This document shows, piece by piece, positions 2,736 through 18,878 of a stretch of 20,000 nt of DNA (its first letter is position 1; each line of letters opens with the position of its first letter). The position numbers were made by a program, and so were the translations under genes. Under the pieces are notes generated by a model. The model saw nothing but the letters and a program-made list of their open reading frames with translations. It was not told the DNA's origin and made no database searches. Origin of the DNA: an uncultured virus (IMG/VR IMGVR_UViG_3300028888_000132) (lineage: Duplodnaviria > Heunggongvirae > Uroviricota > Caudoviricetes); IMG/VR virus record IMGVR_UViG_3300028888_000132; one strand, written 5' to 3'.

Positions 2736-5700
2736 ATGGGAGAATGGTTAATATACGGAAGTAATGGCGTAGCGAAGGCTACCGTAAAGAAACTCGAATA
2801 TAATGGTGAATTTATGGGCGAGACTATCGTCACTTGCGATGTATATAGCCCTTCTCCCATTTCTTTCTCAGTCGGTGATTATCTTTCCTATCGTGGAGAG
2901 AACTTTGTTATTGACTACGATGCTACAAGGAAAAAGCAATCAAGAGTAAATACTTACGGTAATGGCTTTGTTTATGAGGGGATGAAGTTCACCTCATACG
3001 TCGGAGAACTAAAGAAGTGCGATTTTCTTGATTTTGTCCTTAATGACAATCTTCAACATTATTCTCAACTACCTACATTTGACTTCTACGCTGAGACAGT
3101 AGAAGCATTGGCTAACAGAATACAAGCCAATCTGAACCGTATGTACACAGGTTCAAATGCGTGGACTGTTTCTGTTGTTAGCGGATTTGAAGGGAAGGAG
3201 AATGTCAACGTACAGATTAGCAATATAAAGTGCTTCGATGCACTAAAGATGGCATACGAGCAGTTCAATGCACAATATGTTATCAGAGGAAGGCATATCT
3301 ATATCGGTACTGCTGGAGCTTCGTTAGAGACAACTTTCAGATATGGAATCGGCAACGGCTTGAAGACTATAGAAAGGAGCGTTGATGAGAATGATTCTTT
3401 GGTGACGAGACTTCGTGCCTATGGTAATACGACCAATCTCCCATCAAACTATTATGCAAACAAGGGAAGAGGTTGCTATGCTCCTATCTTTGAAGTATAT
3501 GCTCTTTATGATAGTGGGGCAGACATACATTTCAAGCCTAAGTTTGCTAATAATTGGTTTACTGAGAAATCGGATGCAAACGGCATTAATTATTGGGTGA
3601 GTGTATCTTTAGATAAGAAACTATGGGTAGAAGGAGTAGCTTCCCCAAATGTAACCGTTTCAAGCGTTGATTTCTCTGTAGTTTCTGTTATGGCTGGTGG
3701 CAACAACACCACTGATATGTACAATGCGTTCAAGTCTCAGTTGCAGAGTGCAACTCAGAATACTAAATTGTACTTCTCAAAAGGCGTAAATTACACAAAT
3801 TGGAAAAGCGATTGGAAAGAGACAGACGAGTATATGCCTAATATGATGAGCATTGACCGTCTTATGATTCCAAGTTTCCCCGAAGAATCCACCGACCCAT
3901 ACATTGATTCTGCCAATATCTCTTCTCTTGGCATTAGGGAGAAGTCCGTTTATTTCGACGGCTCAGAAGACGAGCTTCCCGACATTCATCCTTCTATGGA
4001 AGGAATGACTGCCGCAGAATTGAGAGCGGCAGGGTATACAATCGACCTTGACCAAGGTGACAACGGCAACTTAGATGAGATTGCAGCAGACGCAACGGAG
4101 TTGGACGGTTCTGCAATAACGACAAACGGAGCGTTCGTTGAGGTGAACGAAGTACCTGGCTTTAAGGTTACTCTTAAAGACATAGGATTTGACATCAACA
4201 GTTATTTGTCAGGTGATACAGCTACTTTGTCAATGAAGAGCGGTATGTGCGGAGGTCGTGACTTTACCATAGTGAAGGTGACGAAATTGGGGAATAAGTA
4301 TGTTTTGGAATGTCAAAGAGTAGGGGATGCCAATTACTATTTCCCATACAATCCATACAATATTAAAGCAGGCGACAAATTCGTTCTTACGAATATCGAG
4401 ATGCCAAATGCCTATATTGACGCTGCTTCTCAGAGACTTCTCGTAGCCGCACAAGAATATCTTGCAAAACACTCCGTCCCTCAATGGGTTTATTCTATTA
4501 AGATGGACGACGTGTGGATGCAGAGGCAGAGGGATGATTCCGAGAGTGAATCTGAGAGCTACTATTGGAACATCAAGGAAGGTGATATAATGTCAGTGCA
4601 AGATTCTGACCTCGATATTAATGTATCTGAGGTAATAGACAAACTGACTATTCGTGAAGGTTATAGCCCTATCCCTGAGTTTGAAGTAGTTCTTCGTAAG
4701 GAGAAGCCGCAAGGGACAATAGGCGTTTTGCAGAATAGGATTAAATACCTTGAAAGGCAGAATCAGCAACAGACAAATACAATAGTAAGACAACAAGATT
4801 ATATATCTCTGATAATCGGTGATAAGCTGAACACCATTCAAGAGCAGTTAGACCATGTTCAAGTGACCTACTTCGGCGACTATGTTCCTGCTTTGAACAA
4901 CGAGCCTGCATCTACATGGGCTTCTTCCGAGTATTCCGAGCATGACGGTGATATGTTCTACAACCGCACGACGGGTAAGGGTTATGAGTTCACTTATAAG
5001 AACGGAACATGGGGATGGATAGAGATACAGGACGAGGACATCAGACAAGCCCTTGAAGAAGCTGCGGCAGCCCAAGACACGGCAGATGGTAAACGAAGAG
5101 TATTCGTCACCCCTGCTGGTACATTGCCTACCCCTCCGTATGACGAGAATGACTTGTGGGTTAATGCTACCTATCCGAGCGATTCCACTTCTACGGATGA
5201 GAGTCAGTACAAGTACTACAATGACATCTTGAAATGCGTCACTCCGAAGGCAGAAGGTGGAACGGCATCCATCAATGATTGGACTCTTGCAAGTAAATAC
5301 ACCGATGATTCAAGCCTTAACAACTTTATCAACGGAACATACGCTCAAGACCTTGCTAATGTAAGGACACAGACGGATGCTAAGGCAGAGACATGGTATC
5401 AGAGTTCAGACCCATCATCAGCATGGAATACAACGGCATTAAAGGATAGTCATTTGGGCGATATATGGCTCAACACCACACCCGATGCGAACGGAAACAC
5501 TCACACATATATCTATCGTAAGAGTGGCAATACCTATGGCTGGCAAGAGGTGAACGGAGTGCCTACTGCCGTATTCGACATGGCTGACGGTAAGGCGAGC
5601 ATATATGTTTCCAAGCCTACGAAGTACAAGAAGAATGATTTGTGGGTCATTGAAAGCTCAATATCTTCTTCCGACCTCCCAACGAACTGCGTAAAGGGTG

Positions 5701-8700
5701 ACATAGTAATATCAAGTTCAAACAGCAACTCATATAACAAGGCTCATTGGACTAAGAAAGACCGCTATACGGATGATACCTACGCCCACACTTTCGATTA
5801 TATATCGGCAGCTATCAAGGGAAAGACCGAGGTTGACGGAGGTTTGGTACTTACCAACACACTTGTTCTGCGTGATGTAGCAAATGACGGAACGCAGGGC
5901 AATATTATGTCTGGTATCAACGGCATCATTCCTAAGAGTGGAAGTACATTAGACTACACAGGCATAGCCGCATGGTACGGAGGCGAAATGATTGACAGAG
6001 AAAAGTCTGCCGTTGCCAACGCTGCCAAGTCACTCTTTAGGTTTGATGGTTCGGGTTATGTAGCAAGTGGTAATCTGAAATGGGATGCCAATGGTAATGT
6101 AACCATACAAGGCTACTCTATCAATGCAACCACACTGCAAGTTGGTGGCTCTAATGTTGCAACGGAATCGAGCATTTCCACTTTCTTTGCCAACTTCTTT
6201 GACATCTACAATGGAAGCACGCAGATAACTTATGAACAATATGTAGCCTTACAAGACAAATCCAATGTAAGTTTGAAAGCCAAGCATGGTCTTTGGACTG
6301 AGCAATTCCTGAGTGCTTTAGGAATGAATAGCCAAGGCGAGGGTGGTGGAGGAACTGGCAGTGTCAATTCCATCAAGGTAGCAACTAATACTTACCTTGA
6401 CCCAGATGCAGATGGTATCATAGATATGTCATCTTATGTAAGCACTGCTGCTGATAGGGCTAATTGGAATACGGCATATAGTCAGAGGCATACCCATAGC
6501 AACAAATCTGTATTGGATGGAATTACAAGTGCAAAGGTTACTTCGTGGGATAATGTTGCCAAGATAATGGAGGACGATGCAGATGCCATTATCAACAAGT
6601 GGGATGAGATTATTGATTTCTTGGATGGTATTCCCGACCAGTCCTCACTTGCCGAGATACTTGCTGCCAAGGCTAACACTTCTACGACAGTAACCAATGT
6701 AGCCTATTCAAGTAAGAAGCTACAGAAGACCATCAACGGCACTACAACAGATATAGTAACAGCTTCTACGCTATTTAGTGATGGTTTGCCTACCAATACC
6801 ACCAAGAACTATGTATTTGCTGCTCCTTCCAGTGCTGCTGGTACACCTACATTCCGTGCATTGGTCTATGCTGACCTGCCAAGTCTTTACATAGGCAAGA
6901 CACAAGTACAATCCACATCAGCCAATCAAGCAATGACAGGCATTACTTCCATAGATGCACTGGCATACTTTGATATGACTAACTCAAGGGTGGGCATAGG
7001 CACATCTTCTCCAAGCTATAAACTCCATGTAAACGGTTACACATCTACCACAAGATTATACTTGTCAAGCAGTGTATATCTTGAATACGATTCCACAAAT
7101 AGCGGTATTCATGTAGTAGGTGCTGGCTTGTATAGTGATTCTTATATATCAGCATTAGGTAGCAATTCAAGCGGTGGTGGTTCATCTACATTTGATGAGG
7201 CACAAATGTGGACAGCTTTGCAATCTACCTCTGGTACTTATGGAAGTGAGAAGATAGCCACTACGCATATCCCCGACATGGCTTCTACCTATGGCTATTT
7301 AAAGGCTTCTTCACTTAATGGCTATGCTACACAGACTTGGGTAAATCAACAAGGATTCCTCACTACACATCAGACACTCTATACACTGTCTATCTATGGT
7401 GGCACAACAAAGGTGTTGGACTTCAAGCCTAATGCCAATGCAAGCATATACATCAAGGCAGGAGGTGACATTTCTCTTACCAATGATACCACAAACAAGT
7501 ATATTACATTAAGCTATACTCATCCTACCAATGGTGCTAATACAACTATTTCGGCAGCAAGTGGAAAGGTACTAAGTGCCATTACAGTCAACAATCTTGG
7601 TCATGTAACATCAGTTTCAAGCAAGACTTTGGTATCTGCTGATATTCCCGATTTAAGCGGTACTTATGCCACTGCTGCAAGGGCTACTACTTTAGAGGGG
7701 TATTTCACCAATGGAGTTGCCAATACTGCTGCCAAGCTGAACACAGGCACTACAACATATACAGCATGGGGGCAGACTTATTGGTCAAGTGGTGTTCCTC
7801 AGTCTATCAGTGGCAACATGACATCAGTAGGCTCTATTACCCCATCTGCCAATGGCAATGCTCTTGGTACTACATCAGCAAGGTTCAACATCTATGGTAC
7901 TGCTGGTAACTTCAGTGGTAATGTATCAATAGGCGGCACATTGGGAGTTACTGGTGCCACTACATTGACAGGCTTGCTTACTGCTAATGGCGGTATAGTA
8001 GTTCCTTCATCCAAGACAATCAAGATAGGTGATTGCACAATCTCATGGGATAGCACCAACTCAATGCTTAAATTCGATACTGGCATCTATTCCACAGGTG
8101 CTGTTTCTGCTTTAGGCAGTAACTCAAGTGGTGGTGGTAGTGGTACATTTGACGAAGAAGCTATGTGGGTAGCTTTGGGTACTACAATAACAGCTAAAGT
8201 TATTGCTTCAAGCCATATCCCTAATTTATCATGGGCTAAGATTACAAGTGGCAAGCCTGCTACCCTCAGTGGCTATGGCATATCAGATGCCTACACCAAG
8301 ACGCAGGTAGATACTGCTCTTAGTGGGTATCTGCCTTTGAGTGGTGGAAATATGACAGGCAACATCACTTTCGCAAGTAATACAGGTTTCTATGCAAAAG
8401 ATACTGGTGGCACATCCCGTCTTGCAATGAAATTGGATGGAACAGATAACTTATTGATTGGTTACGGCACATCTATAGGAGGTTCTAATACATACATTGA
8501 TGGCAACACTGTCTATATCAGATATGGGACTTCACATACAACAGGTATTACTCTTGCATCTGGTGGCAATGTTACCATAGCAAATAGATTATTAGTTAAT
8601 GAAATAACTGCTACAAATAGTGAGGGGTTACTGGTGTATAAACCTTCATCTGGGTGGGGTGGAATATCAAATACGCAATGGGGTGCTGGCTCTGCTGACT

Positions 8701-10847
8701 CTCAGGGTGTAATAAGAAGTTCAAATGCTGACCTAATTCATTACAAAGGAGGTGTAAATTATACTATACTTGATTCAAGCAATTATTCAAGTTACGCATT
8801 ACCTATTAGTGGAGGTACACTATATAAAAACACAACTGACGCTCCTCTGTTTATAAAAACGCACAATACATCAGGAGCTTATATTGGTTATCAGTTAAAT
8901 GATGGCACTACTATGGGATTTATAGGTGTTCATGCTACCTATGGTGCAGCCTATGTTAAAAGTGGAACTATATATCCCATACTGCGTTCAGATAATTTTG
9001 GAGATTATGCTTACGCTTTGTATGGAGGTACTGACCTTGCTCCAACATCAACAAACACAATTAATCTTAATGAATTAAAAAGTACAGGAAGTTATTATGT
9101 CAGCACCAACACTCCAAGTCAGTATGTGACTAACAAGCCAGATGATACTCAGAATTATGCTTTCCGTGTATGGGTTTCTGCCCCAGGTGGTACAAGTGGC
9201 TATCGCAGACAGAGATTCCAATACCTTACACAAATGACAATTTATGAGAGGTTCTACAGTACAGATTCAAGCACATGGACTAATTGGTATAAGGTACAGG
9301 GCGATTTAGATGGCGAATATCTAAAACTAACTGGTGGAACAATTACTGGAAATCTAACAGTAAAAAATACATTATATACTGACGCTATTTGTGAGCCTAT
9401 TGCCTACAATGGCTTGCTTGTCTATCATCCTGCAAGTGGGTGGGGTGGCATATCATCAACACAATGGGGTGTAGGCTCTACTGATAGTCAAGGTGTGATA
9501 AGAAGCTCAGATGCTAACCTTATCCATTACAAAGGTGGAACAAATTACACAATATGTGATGGAAGCAACACTTATGTAAGCAGTGGAACTGGATATATCA
9601 ACGGTACAGCTATTACAAAGATTAGCGGTAATGCTGGTACTGCTACCACTTTAGCTACACCTCGCACTTTGTGGGGGCAGTCATTTAATGGCAGTGCAAA
9701 TGTCAGTGGAGATATGTCGAGTGTAGGCACTATTACATCAGCAAACTACACCTTAGCAACAAGTACAACTAATCCGTATTTGAAACTGAGCCATACATAT
9801 AACAGCACTAATTACGACTATTTTATTCAAGGTTATGAAGGTACTATGTGGCTGGGACCGAGTTCATATCCAGTAAAGATAGATAGCAGTGGGAATGTAG
9901 GTATAGGTACAATTCCATCCTACAAACTCCATGTGAATGGACAATTAGGAGTAACCACTGCAAGTCAAGGTACTATGAGGTTTGTTTCATCAGGTTCAAA
10001 AAACTTTATACAAAGTGGTAATGCTGCATTTGATGGTAATGCTGATATGACTATAGGTGGATATTCTGGTCATTTAGGCACTAATCTTAATCTCGAATTT
10101 AATGTAGTAAACGCAACCAGTGTCTTTAAAGTAAAAAGTTACCTGACACTTGGATATGGTGCGGAAGGTATATACTTGACAGGTTCAGGCATTAATTGGC
10201 ATAACACAAGTGATTCATGGACTAAATCTATAATGAGTTTTGCATCTAATGGTGTTGTTACACAGTTGGGAGGTCACTTTGTCCTTGCTGGTGCTCAGGC
10301 TGCAAGTTCAACGGGTAATACAACGCAGATTATTTTCACCGCTTCTGGTGCTCAGCAAGTAGCAATCAGTTCTAATTCAAGTGCATTGATTATCAACCCT
10401 ACATCATCAACCACTACCAAGCAAATTGTATTGGGCGTTGGTTCAGTTGCTTCTACATTTGGCAACTCAATCACTTGTAGTGGCGAAGTTACTGCATCAT
10501 CAGATGGCAGAAAGAAGAACATCATTTCCAACACCAAGTTTAATGTAAAGGACATTGCTTCTGCAAGGTCAGTCTTATTTGAATGGAATGATGGCAGGGA
10601 TGATGATATGGAGAAGAAGATACACGGTGGTAGTATTGCACAGGATTGGTTAGGCAAAGCAGATTCATTCCTTATGCAAGATGAGGATGGATTCTACTCA
10701 ATCAACTACGGTGCATTGGCATTGTGTTCAGCTATAACCATTGCAAGAGAGGTAGTGAAGCACGAAGATAGAATCACACTATTGGAAAAGGAAAATGCCA
10801 AACTGAAAGCAAGGGTGGAAGAACTTGAAGAAAGGAGGATAGCATGA
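2736..10847 (+). CDS. Giant tail protein: Tal/baseplate hub fused to central fibre/receptor-binding region and C-terminal peptidase S74 intramolecular chaperone
   Basis: 2703 aa. N-terminal Tal-like region with LVTRLRAYG motif; coiled coil (LQNRIKYLERQNQQ); fibre modules (GDMFYN...GWIEIQD...AAQDTADGKRRVFV..PTPPYDENDLWV); YLPLSGGNMTG and VGIGT..PSYKLHVNG repeats; knob-like segment at ~9060-9297; C-terminal SDGRKK...IAQD...SINYGAL plus coiled coil typical of S74 chaperones (from 10500). Confidence 0.9.
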   Translation: MGEWLIYGSNGVAKATVKKLEYNGEFMGETIVTCDVYSPSPISFSVGDYLSYRGENFVIDYDATRKKQSRVNTYGNGFVYEGMKFTSYVGELKKCDFLDFVLNDNLQHYSQLPTFDFYAETVEALANRIQANLNRMYTGSNAWTVSVVSGFEGKENVNVQISNIKCFDALKMAYEQFNAQYVIRGRHIYIGTAGASLETTFRYGIGNGLKTIERSVDENDSLVTRLRAYGNTTNLPSNYYANKGRGCYAPIFEVYALYDSGADIHFKPKFANNWFTEKSDANGINYWVSVSLDKKLWVEGVASPNVTVSSVDFSVVSVMAGGNNTTDMYNAFKSQLQSATQNTKLYFSKGVNYTNWKSDWKETDEYMPNMMSIDRLMIPSFPEESTDPYIDSANISSLGIREKSVYFDGSEDELPDIHPSMEGMTAAELRAAGYTIDLDQGDNGNLDEIAADATELDGSAITTNGAFVEVNEVPGFKVTLKDIGFDINSYLSGDTATLSMKSGMCGGRDFTIVKVTKLGNKYVLECQRVGDANYYFPYNPYNIKAGDKFVLTNIEMPNAYIDAASQRLLVAAQEYLAKHSVPQWVYSIKMDDVWMQRQRDDSESESESYYWNIKEGDIMSVQDSDLDINVSEVIDKLTIREGYSPIPEFEVVLRKEKPQGTIGVLQNRIKYLERQNQQQTNTIVRQQDYISLIIGDKLNTIQEQLDHVQVTYFGDYVPALNNEPASTWASSEYSEHDGDMFYNRTTGKGYEFTYKNGTWGWIEIQDEDIRQALEEAAAAQDTADGKRRVFVTPAGTLPTPPYDENDLWVNATYPSDSTSTDESQYKYYNDILKCVTPKAEGGTASINDWTLASKYTDDSSLNNFINGTYAQDLANVRTQTDAKAETWYQSSDPSSAWNTTALKDSHLGDIWLNTTPDANGNTHTYIYRKSGNTYGWQEVNGVPTAVFDMADGKASIYVSKPTKYKKNDLWVIESSISSSDLPTNCVKGDIVISSSNSNSYNKAHWTKKDRYTDDTYAHTFDYISAAIKGKTEVDGGLVLTNTLVLRDVANDGTQGNIMSGINGIIPKSGSTLDYTGIAAWYGGEMIDREKSAVANAAKSLFRFDGSGYVASGNLKWDANGNVTIQGYSINATTLQVGGSNVATESSISTFFANFFDIYNGSTQITYEQYVALQDKSNVSLKAKHGLWTEQFLSALGMNSQGEGGGGTGSVNSIKVATNTYLDPDADGIIDMSSYVSTAADRANWNTAYSQRHTHSNKSVLDGITSAKVTSWDNVAKIMEDDADAIINKWDEIIDFLDGIPDQSSLAEILAAKANTSTTVTNVAYSSKKLQKTINGTTTDIVTASTLFSDGLPTNTTKNYVFAAPSSAAGTPTFRALVYADLPSLYIGKTQVQSTSANQAMTGITSIDALAYFDMTNSRVGIGTSSPSYKLHVNGYTSTTRLYLSSSVYLEYDSTNSGIHVVGAGLYSDSYISALGSNSSGGGSSTFDEAQMWTALQSTSGTYGSEKIATTHIPDMASTYGYLKASSLNGYATQTWVNQQGFLTTHQTLYTLSIYGGTTKVLDFKPNANASIYIKAGGDISLTNDTTNKYITLSYTHPTNGANTTISAASGKVLSAITVNNLGHVTSVSSKTLVSADIPDLSGTYATAARATTLEGYFTNGVANTAAKLNTGTTTYTAWGQTYWSSGVPQSISGNMTSVGSITPSANGNALGTTSARFNIYGTAGNFSGNVSIGGTLGVTGATTLTGLLTANGGIVVPSSKTIKIGDCTISWDSTNSMLKFDTGIYSTGAVSALGSNSSGGGSGTFDEEAMWVALGTTITAKVIASSHIPNLSWAKITSGKPATLSGYGISDAYTKTQVDTALSGYLPLSGGNMTGNITFASNTGFYAKDTGGTSRLAMKLDGTDNLLIGYGTSIGGSNTYIDGNTVYIRYGTSHTTGITLASGGNVTIANRLLVNEITATNSEGLLVYKPSSGWGGISNTQWGAGSADSQGVIRSSNADLIHYKGGVNYTILDSSNYSSYALPISGGTLYKNTTDAPLFIKTHNTSGAYIGYQLNDGTTMGFIGVHATYGAAYVKSGTIYPILRSDNFGDYAYALYGGTDLAPTSTNTINLNELKSTGSYYVSTNTPSQYVTNKPDDTQNYAFRVWVSAPGGTSGYRRQRFQYLTQMTIYERFYSTDSSTWTNWYKVQGDLDGEYLKLTGGTITGNLTVKNTLYTDAICEPIAYNGLLVYHPASGWGGISSTQWGVGSTDSQGVIRSSDANLIHYKGGTNYTICDGSNTYVSSGTGYINGTAITKISGNAGTATTLATPRTLWGQSFNGSANVSGDMSSVGTITSANYTLATSTTNPYLKLSHTYNSTNYDYFIQGYEGTMWLGPSSYPVKIDSSGNVGIGTIPSYKLHVNGQLGVTTASQGTMRFVSSGSKNFIQSGNAAFDGNADMTIGGYSGHLGTNLNLEFNVVNATSVFKVKSYLTLGYGAEGIYLTGSGINWHNTSDSWTKSIMSFASNGVVTQLGGHFVLAGAQAASSTGNTTQIIFTASGAQQVAISSNSSALIINPTSSTTTKQIVLGVGSVASTFGNSITCSGEVTASSDGRKKNIISNTKFNVKDIASARSVLFEWNDGRDDDMEKKIHGGSIAQDWLGKADSFLMQDEDGFYSINYGALALCSAITIAREVVKHEDRITLLEKENAKLKARVEELEERRIA
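6288..8177 (+). repeat. Three copies of a G(L/I)(W/Y)xxxx(L/I/V)SALGxNSxG-Gly-rich linker module in the tail fibre
   Basis: Copies at 6288-6354 (GLWTEQFLSALGMNSQGEGGGG), 7125-7220 (GLYSDSYISALGSNSSGGGSSTFDEAQMWTAL) and 8082-8177 (GIYSTGAVSALGSNSSGGGSGTFDEEAMWVAL). Confidence 0.85.
8625..9569 (+). repeat. Duplicated 53-codon module in the distal fibre
   Basis: 8625-8783 and 9411-9569: GLLVYxPxSGWGGISxTQWGxGSxDSQGVIRSSxAxLIHYKGGxNYTIxDxSN, 43/53 aa identical by hand alignment, with many synonymous changes. Confidence 0.9.
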
Positions 10848-11227
10848 TACTGAAATCTGAAAGTGACAAGAGAATCATAGTACAAGGCAATATCAACGGA
10901 AAGAAGGCATATATGTTGGTAGATACAGGGGCTTCGTGTGGCTTATTGGATAAATCCGCTGTAAAGGAATATAAGTTGGCAGTAAACAAGCACAGAACTA
11001 TCAATCTTGTTGGTGCAGGAGGTAAGTTCAAAGCAAGTATGTGTGATACCCCATTTGTTATAGCTGGCAAGCAGATGTACCAATTTGCAATAGCCAATAT
11101 TAGTTCTGTTGTAGAATCTATAAAGAAGCAGACAGATATAGACATAGCAGGTCTTATCAGCTTACCACAAGCTAAGATGATAGGAATGAGTATAGATACA
11201 GACGACAACTATATAGAGATAGGATAA
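10844..11227 (+). CDS. Retropepsin-like (clan AA) aspartic protease
   Basis: 127 aa. IIVQGNINGKKAYMLVDTGAS catalytic motif, flap-like LVGAGG, degenerate IAGLIS second motif. ATGA overlap with the tail fibre stop; AAGGAGG upstream. Confidence 0.85.
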   Translation: MILKSESDKRIIVQGNINGKKAYMLVDTGASCGLLDKSAVKEYKLAVNKHRTINLVGAGGKFKASMCDTPFVIAGKQMYQFAIANISSVVESIKKQTDIDIAGLISLPQAKMIGMSIDTDDNYIEIG

Positions 11228-14837: not shown

Positions 14838-15362
14838 ATGTCGGATAACAACTTTGGCAACGGACTGATTTGGGTAGCTTTCCTTGACGAGGGGCTGCAA
14901 TGCGTAAGAGATTTGCGCTGGATGATTGTGCTATCAATCGTCCTTATCTTCACGGATTTCTGGTGGGGATGGAGTGAGAGCCGAATGAAGTACAATCGTG
15001 CTACCTCGGACAAAGAACGGGATAAATTGCGCTTCCACAAGAGCAAGGCTATCAGACGGTCTGCCAACAAGTTCGTTGACTACCTGACCTACCTCTTAGT
15101 AGGCTGTGTGCTTGGCATGGCTATCCTTGAACCATTGGGGATATGCTCCCATGTGACAAGCGCAGCCGCAGGTCTTGGTCTTGGCTGCGTGGCTGATGTG
15201 ATGAGCATTATAGGTCACTACTGCGCAGTCAAGGGCATAGACTTCGATGCTTGGAAGTTCTTAAAGAAGCTCGTAGTTGTCTTTGTCAAGAAGAAGGACG
15301 AGGATATGGGCGAGGCATTGGAAGAGACAATTAATACTGAAAGCCATGAAAATAATAATTGA
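14838..15362 (+). CDS. Holin (phage holin family 4-like)
   Basis: 174 aa with about three hydrophobic segments, D-x-W-x-G and SKAIRRSANKFVDY motifs, and a charged C-terminal tail. Directly upstream of the endolysin. Confidence 0.8.
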   Translation: MSDNNFGNGLIWVAFLDEGLQCVRDLRWMIVLSIVLIFTDFWWGWSESRMKYNRATSDKERDKLRFHKSKAIRRSANKFVDYLTYLLVGCVLGMAILEPLGICSHVTSAAAGLGLGCVADVMSIIGHYCAVKGIDFDAWKFLKKLVVVFVKKKDEDMGEALEETINTESHENNN

Positions 15363-15804
15363 CAGGGTTTATAAGTACCCGAAGTACACCGTTGGCGAGG
15401 TGTATGTCAACGGCAACTTTTATTGCTATTCGATGGAAGACACAGACAGAGGTCTTCATGTCGATATGCCTATGAGATATATGAGGGAGAGGAAGATATA
15501 TGGCGAGACAGCTATCCCTTGTGGAACGTATGAAGTAATAATAGACTACTCGCCCAAGTTCAAGAAGTATATGCCCCATGTTCTGTTTAGGAACGATGAG
15601 GACAAGCTGGTCGAAGTGCCTTGCTTTAGTGGCATTAGGATTCATCAAGGAAACACCGACAAGGACACTTTAGGTTGCCTTATGTTCGGGGATTGGCAAG
15701 GTGCTGCCACATTGGTAAAATCTAAACCTATAACGAGCAATCTCATTGATTCGATTCAGAGGGCAAGGAACAAGAAAGAGAAAGTAATCTTAGAAATACA
15801 CTAA
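15346..15804 (+). CDS. Endolysin, DUF5675-like putative L,D-peptidase
   Basis: Start at ATG 15346 (MKIIIDR..YTVGEVYVNG.FYCYSMED). KIYGETAIPCGTY and VPCFSGIRIHQGNTDKDTLGCL with conserved His/Cys; overlaps the holin end. Confidence 0.85.
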   Translation: MKIIIDRVYKYPKYTVGEVYVNGNFYCYSMEDTDRGLHVDMPMRYMRERKIYGETAIPCGTYEVIIDYSPKFKKYMPHVLFRNDEDKLVEVPCFSGIRIHQGNTDKDTLGCLMFGDWQGAATLVKSKPITSNLIDSIQRARNKKEKVILEIH

Positions 15805-15808
15805 ATAT

Positions 15809-16111
15809 ATGGAAAAGTATTTTGTAGGAACGGAATTGAAAATTGCCTTCAAGGTGGAATGTGATGGCTTCAATATGGAGACTGACGAATGGACTGCCAC
15901 CGTCAAGAAAGGCAGCAAGTCTATTGTCTGCGACAAGACTAACAACACGGCACACGATGTAGATGGGTGGTATCTGCTTATAGATTCTACTCAGCTTGGC
16001 AGTGGCAGATATGACCTCATTGTGGATATTGATGTTCCCGATGTCGATTTCCCTGATGGATTAAGGCACGAGACATACAAGCAGGAACTCTTTACCGTCA
16101 GTGGAGTATGA
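15809..16111 (+). CDS. Hypothetical beta-rich phage protein, possible fibre attachment/adaptor
   Basis: 100 aa, GTELKIAFKV...LGSGRYDLIVDIDVPD.DFPDGLR; ATGA-coupled to the next gene. Confidence 0.65.
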   Translation: MEKYFVGTELKIAFKVECDGFNMETDEWTATVKKGSKSIVCDKTNNTAHDVDGWYLLIDSTQLGSGRYDLIVDIDVPDVDFPDGLRHETYKQELFTVSGV

Positions 16112-16380
16112 GTTGCCTTACACTGAAAATAGGACTGCCACCGATAGGCATTGTATCTTCGGGTGCCAAGCATACGGGATGGTTTGATGTCGATGTCAAG
16201 AACAAGAATCCGAAGCTGACAGCTTCCAAGATAGGGAATATGATTGTTGATGTTGCCCTTATATGCCGTGCAAGCAATGGGTTCTACCTCCGTGTCAAGC
16301 CCTCAGAAGCTATGTGGATAACAGTCGGCAAGGGCATAGACTATCAGGTTATTTCCAACACCGATTGGATAATTGAGTGA
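16108..16380 (+). CDS. Protein ending in the N-terminal half of a BACON domain
   Basis: 90 aa. C-terminal YLRVKPSEAMWITVGKGIDYQVISNTDWIIE matches the first BACON strands (L.V.P.....V.SNT.W.I). Confidence 0.7.
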   Translation: MSCLTLKIGLPPIGIVSSGAKHTGWFDVDVKNKNPKLTASKIGNMIVDVALICRASNGFYLRVKPSEAMWITVGKGIDYQVISNTDWIIE

Positions 16381-16398
16381 AATTAAAAACATATAATT

Positions 16399-17004
16399 AT
16401 GGCTTACGCAAATTGGTTACAACCGAGTAAAACAAGTGGTAGCGGAAACGATACAGTCAACGTGTCTGCGCTATCATCCAACACTGGTAGAAATGCTCGT
16501 TCTACCACCGTCACTTTCAAGGCTGCGAACTGCGATGATGTTCTAAGGACTGTCCTCCAACAGGGAAAGCCCGAAACATCGGCAATACAAAGCACTGCTT
16601 CGGCTACACAAGCAGGAGGTACGGTCACTATCACTGGTACTTCTAACTCATCCCAACTGACCTTTAGTTTGGGTACTGGTAACTTGACGCTTAACCTGCC
16701 TACATCTTATTCCGCAGGCGGTATAAGTACGGCTAATGGAGCAGCTATCAGTGGCGACCCTGGAGCAGTGCAAGAGTTTACCTTTTCCATCGCTTTTACC
16801 GTCCCTGCCAATACTGATATTGATGCAAAGTCAAGGCAGATTATCGTCACCGACCACGCAGGAAATGCTCACACTTGTACTTTGACATTGGCTGCTGGCG
16901 AGGCTTACTTGACCGTTTCTCCTACATCAGTGGAGATTCCTTGGGATGCTTCGGAAAGCAAGTCATTCACGGTTGAAAGCAACACCAACTGGACTATTGC
17001 ATAA
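16399..17004 (+). CDS. BACON-domain protein with permuted architecture (C-half / full domain / N-half)
   Basis: 201 aa. Begins ANWLQPSKTSGSGNDTVNVSA..NTGRNARSTTVTF..VLQQG and ends YLTVSPTSVEIPWDASESKSFTVESNTNWTIA. Confidence 0.85.
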   Translation: MAYANWLQPSKTSGSGNDTVNVSALSSNTGRNARSTTVTFKAANCDDVLRTVLQQGKPETSAIQSTASATQAGGTVTITGTSNSSQLTFSLGTGNLTLNLPTSYSAGGISTANGAAISGDPGAVQEFTFSIAFTVPANTDIDAKSRQIIVTDHAGNAHTCTLTLAAGEAYLTVSPTSVEIPWDASESKSFTVESNTNWTIA

Positions 17005-17273
17005 TGGCTACCAAGAGTATTGCATGGCAGAATGGAAGTGGTAATATCACGGTTACTTATTCGGGTAGCCGTGATGATACCGTTTCCGTTTCTTCAAGTG
17101 AGAATGACATCTACGAGGATAGGGAACAAGTAATTACTGTCAAGACAACCGACAATGCAATATCGAGACAAGTGACAGTAAGACAAGGGATGAGAGAACC
17201 TAATCTGATAACTAAAGATGGTCATTGGATAGTTACAAAGAATGACAAGTATGTTATTGTAAAAGAAAGTTGA
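17004..17273 (+). CDS. Protein beginning with the C-terminal half of a BACON domain
   Basis: 89 aa. W.NGSGNITV...VSVSSSENDIYEDREQVITVKT....RQVTVRQG; TAATG-coupled to the previous gene. Confidence 0.75.
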   Translation: MATKSIAWQNGSGNITVTYSGSRDDTVSVSSSENDIYEDREQVITVKTTDNAISRQVTVRQGMREPNLITKDGHWIVTKNDKYVIVKES

Positions 17274-17274
17274 T

Positions 17275-17499
17275 ATGGCTAATACAGCGCACCAGATAGA
17301 TTATACAGACACGCAGTTGGATGAAGCGTTAGACAGGGCAATGACCGTTCCTGCCGTGTCAACCTCTGACAACGGCAAGATAATGGAGGTGGTTAGTGGA
17401 GCATGGGCTGCGGTGAAACCCGTAGCCATATATTCAGGTACATCTGCTCCAAGCAGCAGTCTTGGCAACAATGGTGACATCTATATTCAGACCTCATGA
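17275..17499 (+). CDS. Short fibre-like adaptor protein
   Basis: 74 aa with VPAVSTSDNGKIMEVVSGAW and YSGTSAPSSSLGNNGDIYIQ, motifs I recognise from phage fibre proteins. Confidence 0.65.
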   Translation: MANTAHQIDYTDTQLDEALDRAMTVPAVSTSDNGKIMEVVSGAWAAVKPVAIYSGTSAPSSSLGNNGDIYIQTS

Positions 17500-18878
17500 G
17501 CAGAACAATCAATGATACTGGTACAGAAAGCTCCCACCCAGTCAGCTATGACAGTGGGTACTCTGCGTATAGTGTAAGTGGCTTGGATAATGCCCTGGCG
17601 GATTCCGATAGCACCACCTATGCCACCATTAACTTAACAAGAGGACAGAATGCTGAGACGATAATCTACTATAATTTCAACATTACTGGCATTCCAAGTG
17701 GTGCTACAATTAACTCAGTCAGCTGCTCTGCTAAGTGCTATATCAGCTCCACAAATTCAAGCCGTATTGCCACAAGGCAGATAAGATTGTATTCAGGCTC
17801 TACTGCTATGGGTTCTGCACACACAGTTTCCAACAGCACTACGGCTTTCAGTATGACTGCTGGAACATGGACTGCTGCACAGTTTGCTAATGCCAAGGTA
17901 AGGTTATATGCCAAGCGTGGTACAAGCAATACTACCACCAACTATTACTTCAGGTTCTATGGAGCAACATTGACGGTTTCCTATACCTATCAAACAGTAG
18001 TCTATGAGGTAACTGCAAGTAGTAATGTCAGCGGAGTTACCATAGAGCCAGCCTCTCAAGAACAGGCACAAGGTGGTAATGCAACGGTAACACTTAACAC
18101 AAATTCCAATATTAAATTGTTGGATAACAATACGGATGTTACATCGTCAATAGAATATGGCAGCCAAAATCCTACCTATTCGGTGGAAACAGTATCAGGT
18201 GCAGAGTATGGGTTCAACTTGTCTAATGGGTGGTATGTGTCAGCTAACAAGGGAATCAATTCGTCTGCTGCTTTGTGTAGGGTTACTTTTGACTTGCCTA
18301 TTAGTTGTGATATTACCTTTACATACATTAACTATGCAGAGGCTACCTATGACTTTGGCGTTTTCTCTAAAATTGATACCGCTTTATCTACTACTGCATG
18401 GGACTCAACAAGTAGTGGCGGTGATACTACTACTGATGCAGGGAAAGAGCAAAGGCGACTCAATACATCATCTTATAACTCATCAAGTCAGCAAACATTG
18501 ACATATAGTAATGTATCATCTGGAAGTCATTACATAGATGTAAAGTTCAGCAAAGACCAAGCTACTGCCGAGAATAATGATACATTGCAATGGAAGGTTT
18601 CTATAACTCCGAGGGGTACATTGCCTACTGTATATACATATACAATTACAAATATATCAGCAGACCATGTGCTTGTTGTTAATCCAGCTTCTGCACCAAG
18701 TGATAAGATATTCCGCAAGGTAAATGGCACATGGGTACAGGCTTCTAAGGAATATGTGAAAGTGAGCGGTACATGGAGAGAGGTCAGCAAGGTTTACAAG
18801 AAAGTCAATGGCTCTTGGGTGGAACAAGATGATATTAGTGCAATGTTTGACCCTAATGCAATTTATATAGGAGGTTAA
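17496..18878 (+). CDS. Putative fibre-tip adhesin / receptor-binding protein
   Basis: 460 aa, Ser/Thr/Tyr-rich beta protein. YTYTITNISADHVLVV Ig-like strand and three C-terminal KV(N/S)GxW repeats; ATGA-coupled to the 74-aa gene. Confidence 0.7.
   Translation: MSRTINDTGTESSHPVSYDSGYSAYSVSGLDNALADSDSTTYATINLTRGQNAETIIYYNFNITGIPSGATINSVSCSAKCYISSTNSSRIATRQIRLYSGSTAMGSAHTVSNSTTAFSMTAGTWTAAQFANAKVRLYAKRGTSNTTTNYYFRFYGATLTVSYTYQTVVYEVTASSNVSGVTIEPASQEQAQGGNATVTLNTNSNIKLLDNNTDVTSSIEYGSQNPTYSVETVSGAEYGFNLSNGWYVSANKGINSSAALCRVTFDLPISCDITFTYINYAEATYDFGVFSKIDTALSTTAWDSTSSGGDTTTDAGKEQRRLNTSSYNSSSQQTLTYSNVSSGSHYIDVKFSKDQATAENNDTLQWKVSITPRGTLPTVYTYTITNISADHVLVVNPASAPSDKIFRKVNGTWVQASKEYVKVSGTWREVSKVYKKVNGSWVEQDDISAMFDPNAIYIGG

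Follow-up and report, generated by a model that had tools for sequence, protein, structure and literature searches.

In chaperone-usher pili, subunits are held together by donor-strand complementation and donor-strand exchange, and strand exchange also operates in the type V pili of Bacteroidia. In phages, according to the portions of the published reports drawn on here, proteins with tandem BACON repeats occur in crAss-like and other gut phages (de Jonge et al. 2019, PMC6949934; Apjok et al. 2026, PMC13370021), and displayed BACON proteins bind epithelium (Apjok et al. 2026, PMC13370021). The cited portions also describe the Hoc protein of phage T4 as a monomeric string of immunoglobulin (Ig)-like domains that has a separate virion anchor and is implicated in adherence (PMC10385173), and the nozzle of the Pseudomonas podophage A1002 as a structure in which two proteins fill each other's missing beta-strands (Pang et al. 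2026, PLoS Biol, PMC13730344). Here we analyzed a 20,000-nucleotide stretch of DNA from an uncultured virus of the Caudoviricetes (IMG/VR IMGVR_UViG_3300028888_000132; the whole stretch is called the window), in which three consecutive genes, which we call base, shaft and tip, begin or end inside a BACON domain.

Complementary BACON pieces in three consecutive genes

The base gene (90 amino acids (aa); 16108-16380), the shaft gene (201 aa; 16399-17004, ATG at 16399) and the tip or cap gene (89 aa; 17004-17273) are all encoded on the plus strand. The C-termini of base and shaft carry the first part of a BACON fold, and the N-termini of shaft and tip carry the remainder. The base starts with about 59 residues that vary in the alignment of homologues (16108-16284), followed by residues 60-90 (YLRVKPSEAMWITVGKGIDYQVISNTDWIIE; 16285-16377), assigned to the first part of the fold; its C-terminus reads ...YQVISNTDWIIE, with a TGA stop at 16378-16380. 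Junction 1 is a spacer of 18 nucleotides (nt), 17 of which are A or T (16381-16398), with an in-frame TAA inside it at 16384-16386. In the shaft, residues 1-57 (16399-16569) form the second part of the fold, strands C' to F, as judged from Pfam, profile and hidden Markov model (HMM) matches. Residues 58-165 (16570-16893) are a complete Ig-like middle domain according to AlphaFold and fold alignment, and residues 166-201 (16894-17001), ending in ...SNTNWTIA, are again a first part, strands A to C, by profile and HMM. Junction 2 is a TAATG overlap of the shaft stop (17002-17004) with the tip start (17004-17006) in frame -1. Residues 1-62 of the tip match a divergent second part with a longer N-terminal lead-in (Pfam and the HMM of the shaft second half), and residues 63-89 are a short tail conserved among the aligned homologues (GMREPNLITKDGHWIVTKNDKYVIV). 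At both junctions, stops and starts lie inside the BACON domain, which is not contained in one polypeptide, and the same is true of all the 18 locus groups described below. The positions of the open reading frames (ORFs) and the complementary halves at both junctions, which had been read from the letters in an initial annotation of this DNA, were borne out by the ORF coordinates, by Pfam and by the order of the profile matches in the Protein Data Bank (PDB).

The Pfam family BACON (PF13004) has 61 positions, covers the later part of the fold only and has a cut-off of 25 bits. It matched residues 4-44 of the shaft above this cut-off (profile 9-49, E 1.2e-6, 28.8 bits) and residues 16-61 of the tip below it (profile 13-60, E 6e-4, 20.2 bits), and gave no match with the 90-aa base. 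When a shaft profile built from 108 homologues was searched against the PDB sequences, positions 172-201 were placed on residues 8-39 of 3zmr_A, the BACON domain of BoGH5A, and positions 4-55 on residues 42-92 of the same chain. Similarly, on 8va4_A the C-terminal piece of the shaft was placed at 35-64 and the N-terminal piece at 67-121. These two placements indicate that the C-terminal piece of the shaft directly precedes its N-terminal piece in contiguous solved domains, and the first-half matches, which are weak alone (2.0 and 0.8 bits), gain their weight only through this position.

HMMs of the two half-domains recognized the window shaft with E-values of 4.9e-27 for the second half and 1.6e-16 for the first half. 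The second-half HMM of the shaft also matched tip residues 20-61, entering at HMM position 13, and the second half of the tip in the window lineage is a divergent subtype (E about 1e-3, compared with 1e-27 for the shaft). In the L014 and L049 lineages, the second half of the tip is of the shaft type (E 8.5e-12 and 4.1e-10). The strand order of the BACON domain, taken from the AlphaFold model of the 408-aa relative P0124, is A, A', B, C in the first piece and C', D, E, F in the second, which puts the cut into the C-C' hairpin, with a conserved Trp residue on either side. Given how Ig-like sheets usually pair, both beta-sheets would be expected to be shared between the two pieces.

The split in related phages

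A search for homologues of near length returned 1896 shaft homologues, and lengths were read for the 120 closest ones listed; 118 of these have exactly 201 aa, at 71-97% identity. In a representative library of 50%-identity clusters, 668 clusters were found at E up to 1e-3, and the best 150 of the 668 were examined. Among these best 150, 99 representatives are 190-230 aa long, nearly all of them matching from residue 1 to about residue 200. Exactly three residues follow the last Trp in 73 of the 99, and exactly five precede the first Trp in 59. Chance would not be expected to give a cut position nearly as regular as the one in these sequences. At least 90% of 108 homologues retain N195 and W198 of the shaft, and the core motifs of its two halves (N195, W198, G14, G16, R31, R34) are conserved. 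The ratio of nonsynonymous to synonymous polymorphism (pN/pS) of the window against six relatives was 0.02-0.26 in the second half, 0.07-0.37 in the middle domain and 0.13-0.40 in the first half; these low values indicate purifying selection on all three regions of the shaft.

In the base, only the C-terminus is conserved, with V63, P65, W70, Y79, T85 and W87 invariant in nine homologues. Its N-terminus varies in both length and sequence, yet most copies start with M-(S/G)-C-L and have a second Cys in the motif L-(I/V)-C; the conserved Cys at position 3 is odd for a phage protein made in the cytoplasm. For the tip, 54 homologues of 86-92 aa were found. The relatives are present in Crassvirales records and range from ruminant-gut phages to human-gut Crassvirales, where the GenBank label of a crAss-like homologue reads 'lipocalin-like protein ... 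BACON binding domain'. Scans for related loci with P0195 and P0260 gave no relatives.

The gene order was compared in 18 non-identical locus groups with upstream sequence (the window, L020, L021, L001, L005/23, L022, L002-4/27, L028, L029, L030, L014-19, L034, L035, L045-47, L048, L049/50, L025 and L031). Upstream of the shaft, all 18 groups have a gene whose product ends in the first-half motif; this gene is adjacent to the shaft in 16, and one gene intervenes in L028 and in L014-19. A protein starting with a second half lies directly downstream of the shaft in 14 groups. In L002-4, the second half is found 1.7 kb upstream, where it forms the N-terminal portion of a 341-aa protein that also contains an ALK/LTK-type glycine-rich domain, and in the crAss-like phage cr127_1 it is the C-terminus of the protein after the shaft. 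In L045-47, no second half was found, and the second-half HMM had no match in the 663-aa gene that follows the shaft; three contigs end too early for the tip to be judged. The tips are 86-92, 102, 117, 204, 228, 307, 341, 375 and 485 aa long, a spread which indicates that the distal part is highly exchangeable. The recurrence of the same split point in homologous loci, which the initial annotation had proposed as a check, was thus found in 73 of the 99 representatives and in all 18 locus groups. The split is the normal state of this family and not an error or a decayed gene.

Some of these loci have features of their own. Adjacency of base and shaft is not obligatory, as L028 (1759-2484) shows, where the 66-aa base (...YTVESNTSWILT) is separated from the shaft by a 163-aa gene. 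In L014 (3775-3999; also in L017 and L019), from a lineage in which the shaft is a double one of 408 aa, the 222 nt that separate base and shaft encode a conserved 74-aa ORF (MKINVNVYKDDKNRY...), the start of which overlaps the base stop. Upstream of the three genes in cr127_1 (L034, MT774393.1), a 752-aa protein (7-2265) contains several contiguous BACON-like repeats, indicating that whole and split BACON domains coexist in this genome.

Natural fusions

In P0204 (486 aa) and P0212 (283 aa), shaft and tip are found in one chain. The tip profile matched residues 205-280 of P0204 with a probability of 93%, directly behind the shaft match at 3-198; the match of the tip with P0212 is weaker, not significant by BLASTP and with a profile probability of 72%. 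P0319 has an unrelated N-terminal domain, followed by a first half that is joined straight to a shaft. The N-terminus of P0319 was also considered as a base homologue and was rejected, since the base profile hits the C-terminal first half of this protein and not the internal one. Tandem shafts form a 405-428-aa family and the 807-aa protein P0255, and the order in the 408-aa form is second-middle-first-second-middle-first. Longer shafts of 635, 845, 1061 and 1304 aa keep an N-terminal second half and a C-terminal first half. By a Rosetta-stone argument, these natural fusions would give the pairing order as base with shaft and shaft with tip.

Homologues are not normally one fused ORF. Fused forms are a minority, with 28 of the best 150 representatives longer than 230 aa, many of which are ordinary multi-repeat proteins. 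A second half with no first half is found in the tips and, among the representatives, in proteins of about 165-170 aa that consist of a second half plus a middle domain, and the bases have a first half only. The tips, the second-plus-middle proteins and the bases cannot complete the fold alone because the complement is missing from their own chain, and the earlier reading that base and tip each lack their own complement therefore holds. In P0124, the internal joined halves fit the half-domain HMMs worse (7.8e-7 and 4.8e-11) than the terminal halves (8.8e-13 and 3.3e-23), a difference that suggests tighter constraint on free halves than on covalently joined ones.

Predicted structures

In the AlphaFold model of P0124, the joined halves (173-259) aligned with residues 42-129 of 3zmr_B with a Z-score of 14.0 and a root-mean-square deviation (rmsd) of 1.3 Å over 85 residues (19% identity), which was the top match of 48,161 chains. 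This match indicates that contiguous first and second pieces give a canonical BACON sandwich, in this relative rather than in the window chains. The central contiguous BACON domain of P0124 has 51 strand residues at a predicted local distance difference test score (pLDDT) of 93-97, compared with 30 strand residues and a pLDDT of 82-88 in the terminal halves; in the shaft and P0124 models together, terminal halves have 28-30 strand residues.

By VIA-align, the middle domain of the window shaft aligned with Calx-beta, PapD-like and Ig-like domains (Z 8.0-8.9) and with the 3ZMR BACON domain itself (Z 8.0-8.2); over titin-type, Calx-beta and PapD-like sandwiches together, Z ranged from 6.6 to 8.9. 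Shaft residues 1-168 aligned with CfaE, a rod of two domains arranged end to end (159 residues, rmsd 4.8 Å, Z 7.6), and residues 58-201 with tandem PapD-like domains (126 residues, rmsd 4.8 Å, Z 6.9). For P0124, residues 1-372/374 aligned with straight rods of four domains (6xi1, 314 residues, rmsd 11.3 Å, Z 10.0; also cadherins) and residues 57-408 with titin I65-I70. According to these fold alignments, and not to coordinates, the models appear to be open rods with a half-domain at each pole. The halves had been placed on opposite sides of the middle domain in the initial annotation, and the single-chain models appear to agree, as far as alignments of predicted folds can tell.

Proposed assembly of the appendage

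To account for these results we favor a base-shaft-tip chain with its BACON domains rebuilt between chains, one shaft per chain, a length that is set genetically and exchangeable tips, to which we give a probability of roughly 0.55 from the sequences and the models. In this reading, a ruminant-gut phage would build one virion appendage from the products of the three genes. An ancestral string of the form X-[BACON]-[Ig-like]-[BACON]-Y may have undergone gene fission inside both BACON domains, with the hairpin between the two strands of the conserved Trp residues as the fission point. After separate translation, strands A-C of the base and the N-terminal strands C'-F of the shaft would form one BACON sandwich, and the C-terminal strands of the shaft and the N-terminus of the tip would form a second one, giving a base-shaft-tip chain of three Ig-like domains. 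Interleaved sheets should tighten each joint, and a conserved joint would let different kinds of tips be swapped. The simplest stoichiometry would be one shaft per chain, with the length fixed genetically. The pairing between chains, the choice of partners, the stoichiometry, the location on the virion as an accessory fibre of neck or tail, and the role as an adhesin are inferences from the evidence given here.

Several observations weigh against this chain. The first half of the window base matched the shaft first-half HMM weakly, with an E-value of 0.0018 over 11 residues, and because the HMM barely recognizes it, the assignment of the base half rests on motif, position and conservation. In the single-chain AlphaFold model of the shaft, both half-domains have high confidence (pLDDT 89-97, with 97-99 in the middle domain), and the argument against self-closure is an indirect one. 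Covariation was analyzed by mean-field direct coupling analysis with 108-218 shaft sequences, an effective number of about 105, which is too shallow to separate cis, homotypic and indirect coupling. Pairs between the first and second halves of the shaft were enriched 1.8-1.9-fold in the top 50-100 couplings, like within-domain pairs, and couplings of the first or the second half with the middle domain were depleted (0.25-0.66-fold). This covariation of the shaft with itself counts against the chain, since it does not follow directly from a purely heterotypic arrangement. When first halves were shuffled among sequences, 0 of 100 couplings were cross-block in 5 of 5 shuffles, a control which also destroys phylogeny and proves little. 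What the covariation says is that the two halves of the shaft belong to one kind of domain, and the coupling could be indirect, given that the first halves of base and shaft share lineage features. In addition, there was one clear run in the RNA data, and its coverage was confined to 15801-15951.

The initial annotation had proposed a shaft that polymerizes by itself, which we regard as possible but doubtful. The C-terminal half of one shaft would pair with the N-terminal half of the next to give base-(shaft)n-tip, in which the base is the initiator, the tip is the terminator and n is variable. The tandem fusions of 408-428 and 807 aa agree with this proposal, because a shaft-type first half is covalently joined to a shaft-type second half in them and the joint models as canonical BACON. 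The covariation of the shaft's own halves also agrees with it, as do the single-chain models, which seem to leave the halves exposed at opposite poles. Moreover, the shaft-type second half of the tips in L014 and L049 means that the shaft end could not single out the tip by type alone, and the first half of the shaft, being natively fused to both kinds of second half, is not obviously selective. Free polymerization is less easily reconciled with a dedicated base, a dedicated tip and the exact balance of halves in each genome. The second-half HMM found exactly two ORFs, shaft and tip, in each of three complete or near-complete genomes and in the window, and first and second halves number exactly two each in all complete genomes examined, a count that fits a 1:1:1 chain equally well. 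Shaft length is changed genetically by duplication or insertion, which would be unnecessary if shafts polymerized freely, and the distinct subtype of the tip second half in the window lineage is consistent with dedicated joints.

A broader version, which we hold with the same reserve, is that the split BACON domain may be a portable 'snap-fastener', in which any A-C end would take any C'-F start and the shaft would add to itself head to tail. If so, fibre length would be adjustable, tips could be swapped by recombination at the joint, and phages would have a counterpart of pilus polymerization with no chaperone, usher or covalent bond.

Closure of the shaft on itself, as a circular permutant or a closed head-to-tail dimer, with the base first half pairing with the tip second half, is unlikely. 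The whole 201-aa chain of the window was modeled by AlphaFold with a pLDDT of 97.2, a predicted template modeling score (pTM) of 0.83 and ordered termini, the halves of the shaft covary, and an intramolecular route would be kinetically favored if it were sterically possible. Nevertheless, the rod-like alignments of the 408-aa and 201-aa models seem to put the halves at positions of neighbouring domains, at opposite ends, and the terminal halves of the 408-aa model keep 30 strand residues and not the 51 of its contiguous BACON domain. Natural fusions join the end of the shaft to the start of the tip, and a first half to the start of the shaft, and shafts of 1061 and 1304 aa would need giant loops to close.

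Less probable again is that the halves never pair with each other and that each docks to another virion protein, the likeness to BACON being a relic. The divergence of the base first half would suit this explanation, which is opposed by a cut conserved to the residue with the core motifs of both halves kept, by the balance of halves within each genome and by the contiguous fusions, which rebuild a canonical domain.

The junctions themselves vary among relatives. At junction 1, the spacer is 12-43 nt long and the relative frame of base and shaft is 0, 1 or 2; junction 2 is either a TAATG overlap or a gap of 11-12 nt. Contigs from other samples bridge both junctions with the same split, their substitutions are mostly three bases apart, and indels among independent metagenome contigs occur only within the junction 1 spacer. 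The AT-rich leader of the shaft and the start of its neighbours by overlap coupling, as described in the initial annotation, are true of the window and not general in view of these spacers and gaps. A promoter scan of the window gave 9 sites, compared with 13.9 expected, and a separate promoter before the shaft is unsupported. Although the 90-aa and 201-aa ORFs of the window share one frame, it is very improbable that a single polypeptide is made by read-through, frameshifting or another genetic code, or that the stops are assembly errors or pseudogene lesions, given two different stops (TGA and TAA) in that shared frame, the varied frames and spacers of junction 1, the lack of a slippery heptamer at the overlap or gap of junction 2, a Met-Ala start kept in distant clusters, indels of other samples confined to the spacer, purifying selection on the genes, and a joined reading that gains no Pfam coverage across the joint.

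Genomic context and neighbouring genes

The surroundings of the cassette are a phage late region. A tape-measure-like protein (137-2578) is followed by a single 2703-aa ORF (2736-10847), which has only PHROGs matches of unknown function and no Pfam family. Next in the tail region is a 127-aa ORF (10844-11227) that matches aspartyl protease families of the retroviral type (PF13650, E 8.8e-9; PF13975, E 6.3e-7), unusual company among phage tail genes. Small membrane proteins and, just before the cassette, a DUF5675 protein (15277-15804) precede it, and terminator-like hairpins lie near 19.5 kb, past a 460-aa ORF. In the window as well as in L005 and L014, the cassette and adjoining lysis genes lie where the late region ends. 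DNA that is near-identical to the window was found in 13 metagenome studies of the sheep and bovine gut, and a DNA search of a phage collection with the window gave no match. PHROGs and NCBIfam contained no family for the base, the shaft, the tip or the 100-aa protein described below, and the 100-aa protein matched no Pfam family either. A host search of genome contigs gave two weak matches only (25-29% identity, in unrelated metagenome-assembled genomes), and no host is named.

Three further proteins adjoin the cassette on the plus strand. The stop of the 100-aa ORF (15809-16111) overlaps the base start (ATGA). The protein is 28% identical (E 1e-8) to residues 112-203 of a 215-aa protein of L004, the N-terminus of which is Pfam Phage_connect_1, a gp6-like head-tail connector, and by this homology it is probably a proximal or anchor-associated domain. 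In L004, the base and shaft genes lie between the connector gene and a head-completion gene, a context that suggests a neck fibre in that lineage.

Downstream of the tip, the 74-aa protein (17275-17499) ends in IYSGTSAPSSSLGNNGDIYIQTS, which is identical in 20 of 23 positions (E 6e-5) to the C-terminus of a 277-aa protein that follows the tip in L001 (4894-5727); its membership in the appendage is uncertain. For the 460-aa protein (17496-18878), which has no Pfam family, residues 9-166 share 65% identity (E 2e-68) with the segment that is fused behind the cap in the L005 tip (228 aa; 4606-5292). This match indicates that the 460-aa protein probably belongs to the distal end of the appendage, as a distal or binding part. 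K-x-NG-x-W repeats are present near its C-terminus. Beyond the tip, other separately encoded pieces may also be joined to one another. By analogy with the portions of reports on BACON and Ig-like phage proteins cited here (PMC13370021, PMC6949934), the appendage would act as an adhesin.

Implications

If the halves pair between chains, they would represent a widespread and so far undescribed route of phage appendage assembly, which would also explain the truncated look of many 'BACON proteins' of gut phages. Annotation and adhesion tests would change, since single ORFs expressed alone would be incomplete folds. Accessory tips, either glycine-rich or lectin-like, would be linked to a common shaft, and protein engineers would gain from the joint a naturally occurring pair of split-domain parts, which could also serve to exchange tips in laboratory phages of bacteria.

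Comparison with known systems

In the literature searched, we found no description of a split or circularly permuted BACON domain, and searches on donor strands, fold complementation and gene fission gave no phage-fibre precedent. The window proteins share fold and sequence family with BACON domains (PF13004, PF19190 'viral BACON' and BoGH5A 3ZMR). With the tandem-repeat BACON proteins, as far as the cited portions of the reports describe them, they have in common the type of habitat, the phage groups and a probable role as an Ig-like surface adhesin. In tandem-repeat proteins the domain lies on one polypeptide, whereas in the window it is cut at a fixed loop and the pieces lie at the ends of separate products; no split BACON domain is mentioned in the cited portions of PMC6949934 and PMC13370021.

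The analogy with pili drawn in the initial annotation is apt in that incomplete Ig-like folds are complementary, and loose in other respects. In pili, strands of a neighbour complete an incomplete Ig-like fold to give very stable non-covalent chains with initiator and terminator subunits, and a similar arrangement is proposed here. However, pili donate one strand, whereas a split BACON domain would donate about a third of the domain, three to four strands, with both sheets interleaved, and would do so with no chaperone, usher, secretion or proteolytic priming. In accordance with that, no chaperone, usher or priming family was found among the window and neighbouring ORFs scanned with Pfam, PHROGs and NCBIfam, and no signal peptide was evident.

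T4 Hoc, as described in the cited portion of its report, resembles the proposed chain as a string of Ig-like domains with a separate anchoring part, and differs from it in being one polypeptide with no split domains. On the cited part of its description, the split nozzle of A1002 is the nearest published principle that we found (PMC13730344). It has a beta-propeller and a platform fold, is described from a single phage, and has no portable joint that is reused at both ends of exchangeable modules. As is proposed for the chain favored here, separately encoded structural proteins rebuild a canonical fold in the A1002 nozzle, where the fibre subunits dock by beta-sheet augmentation.

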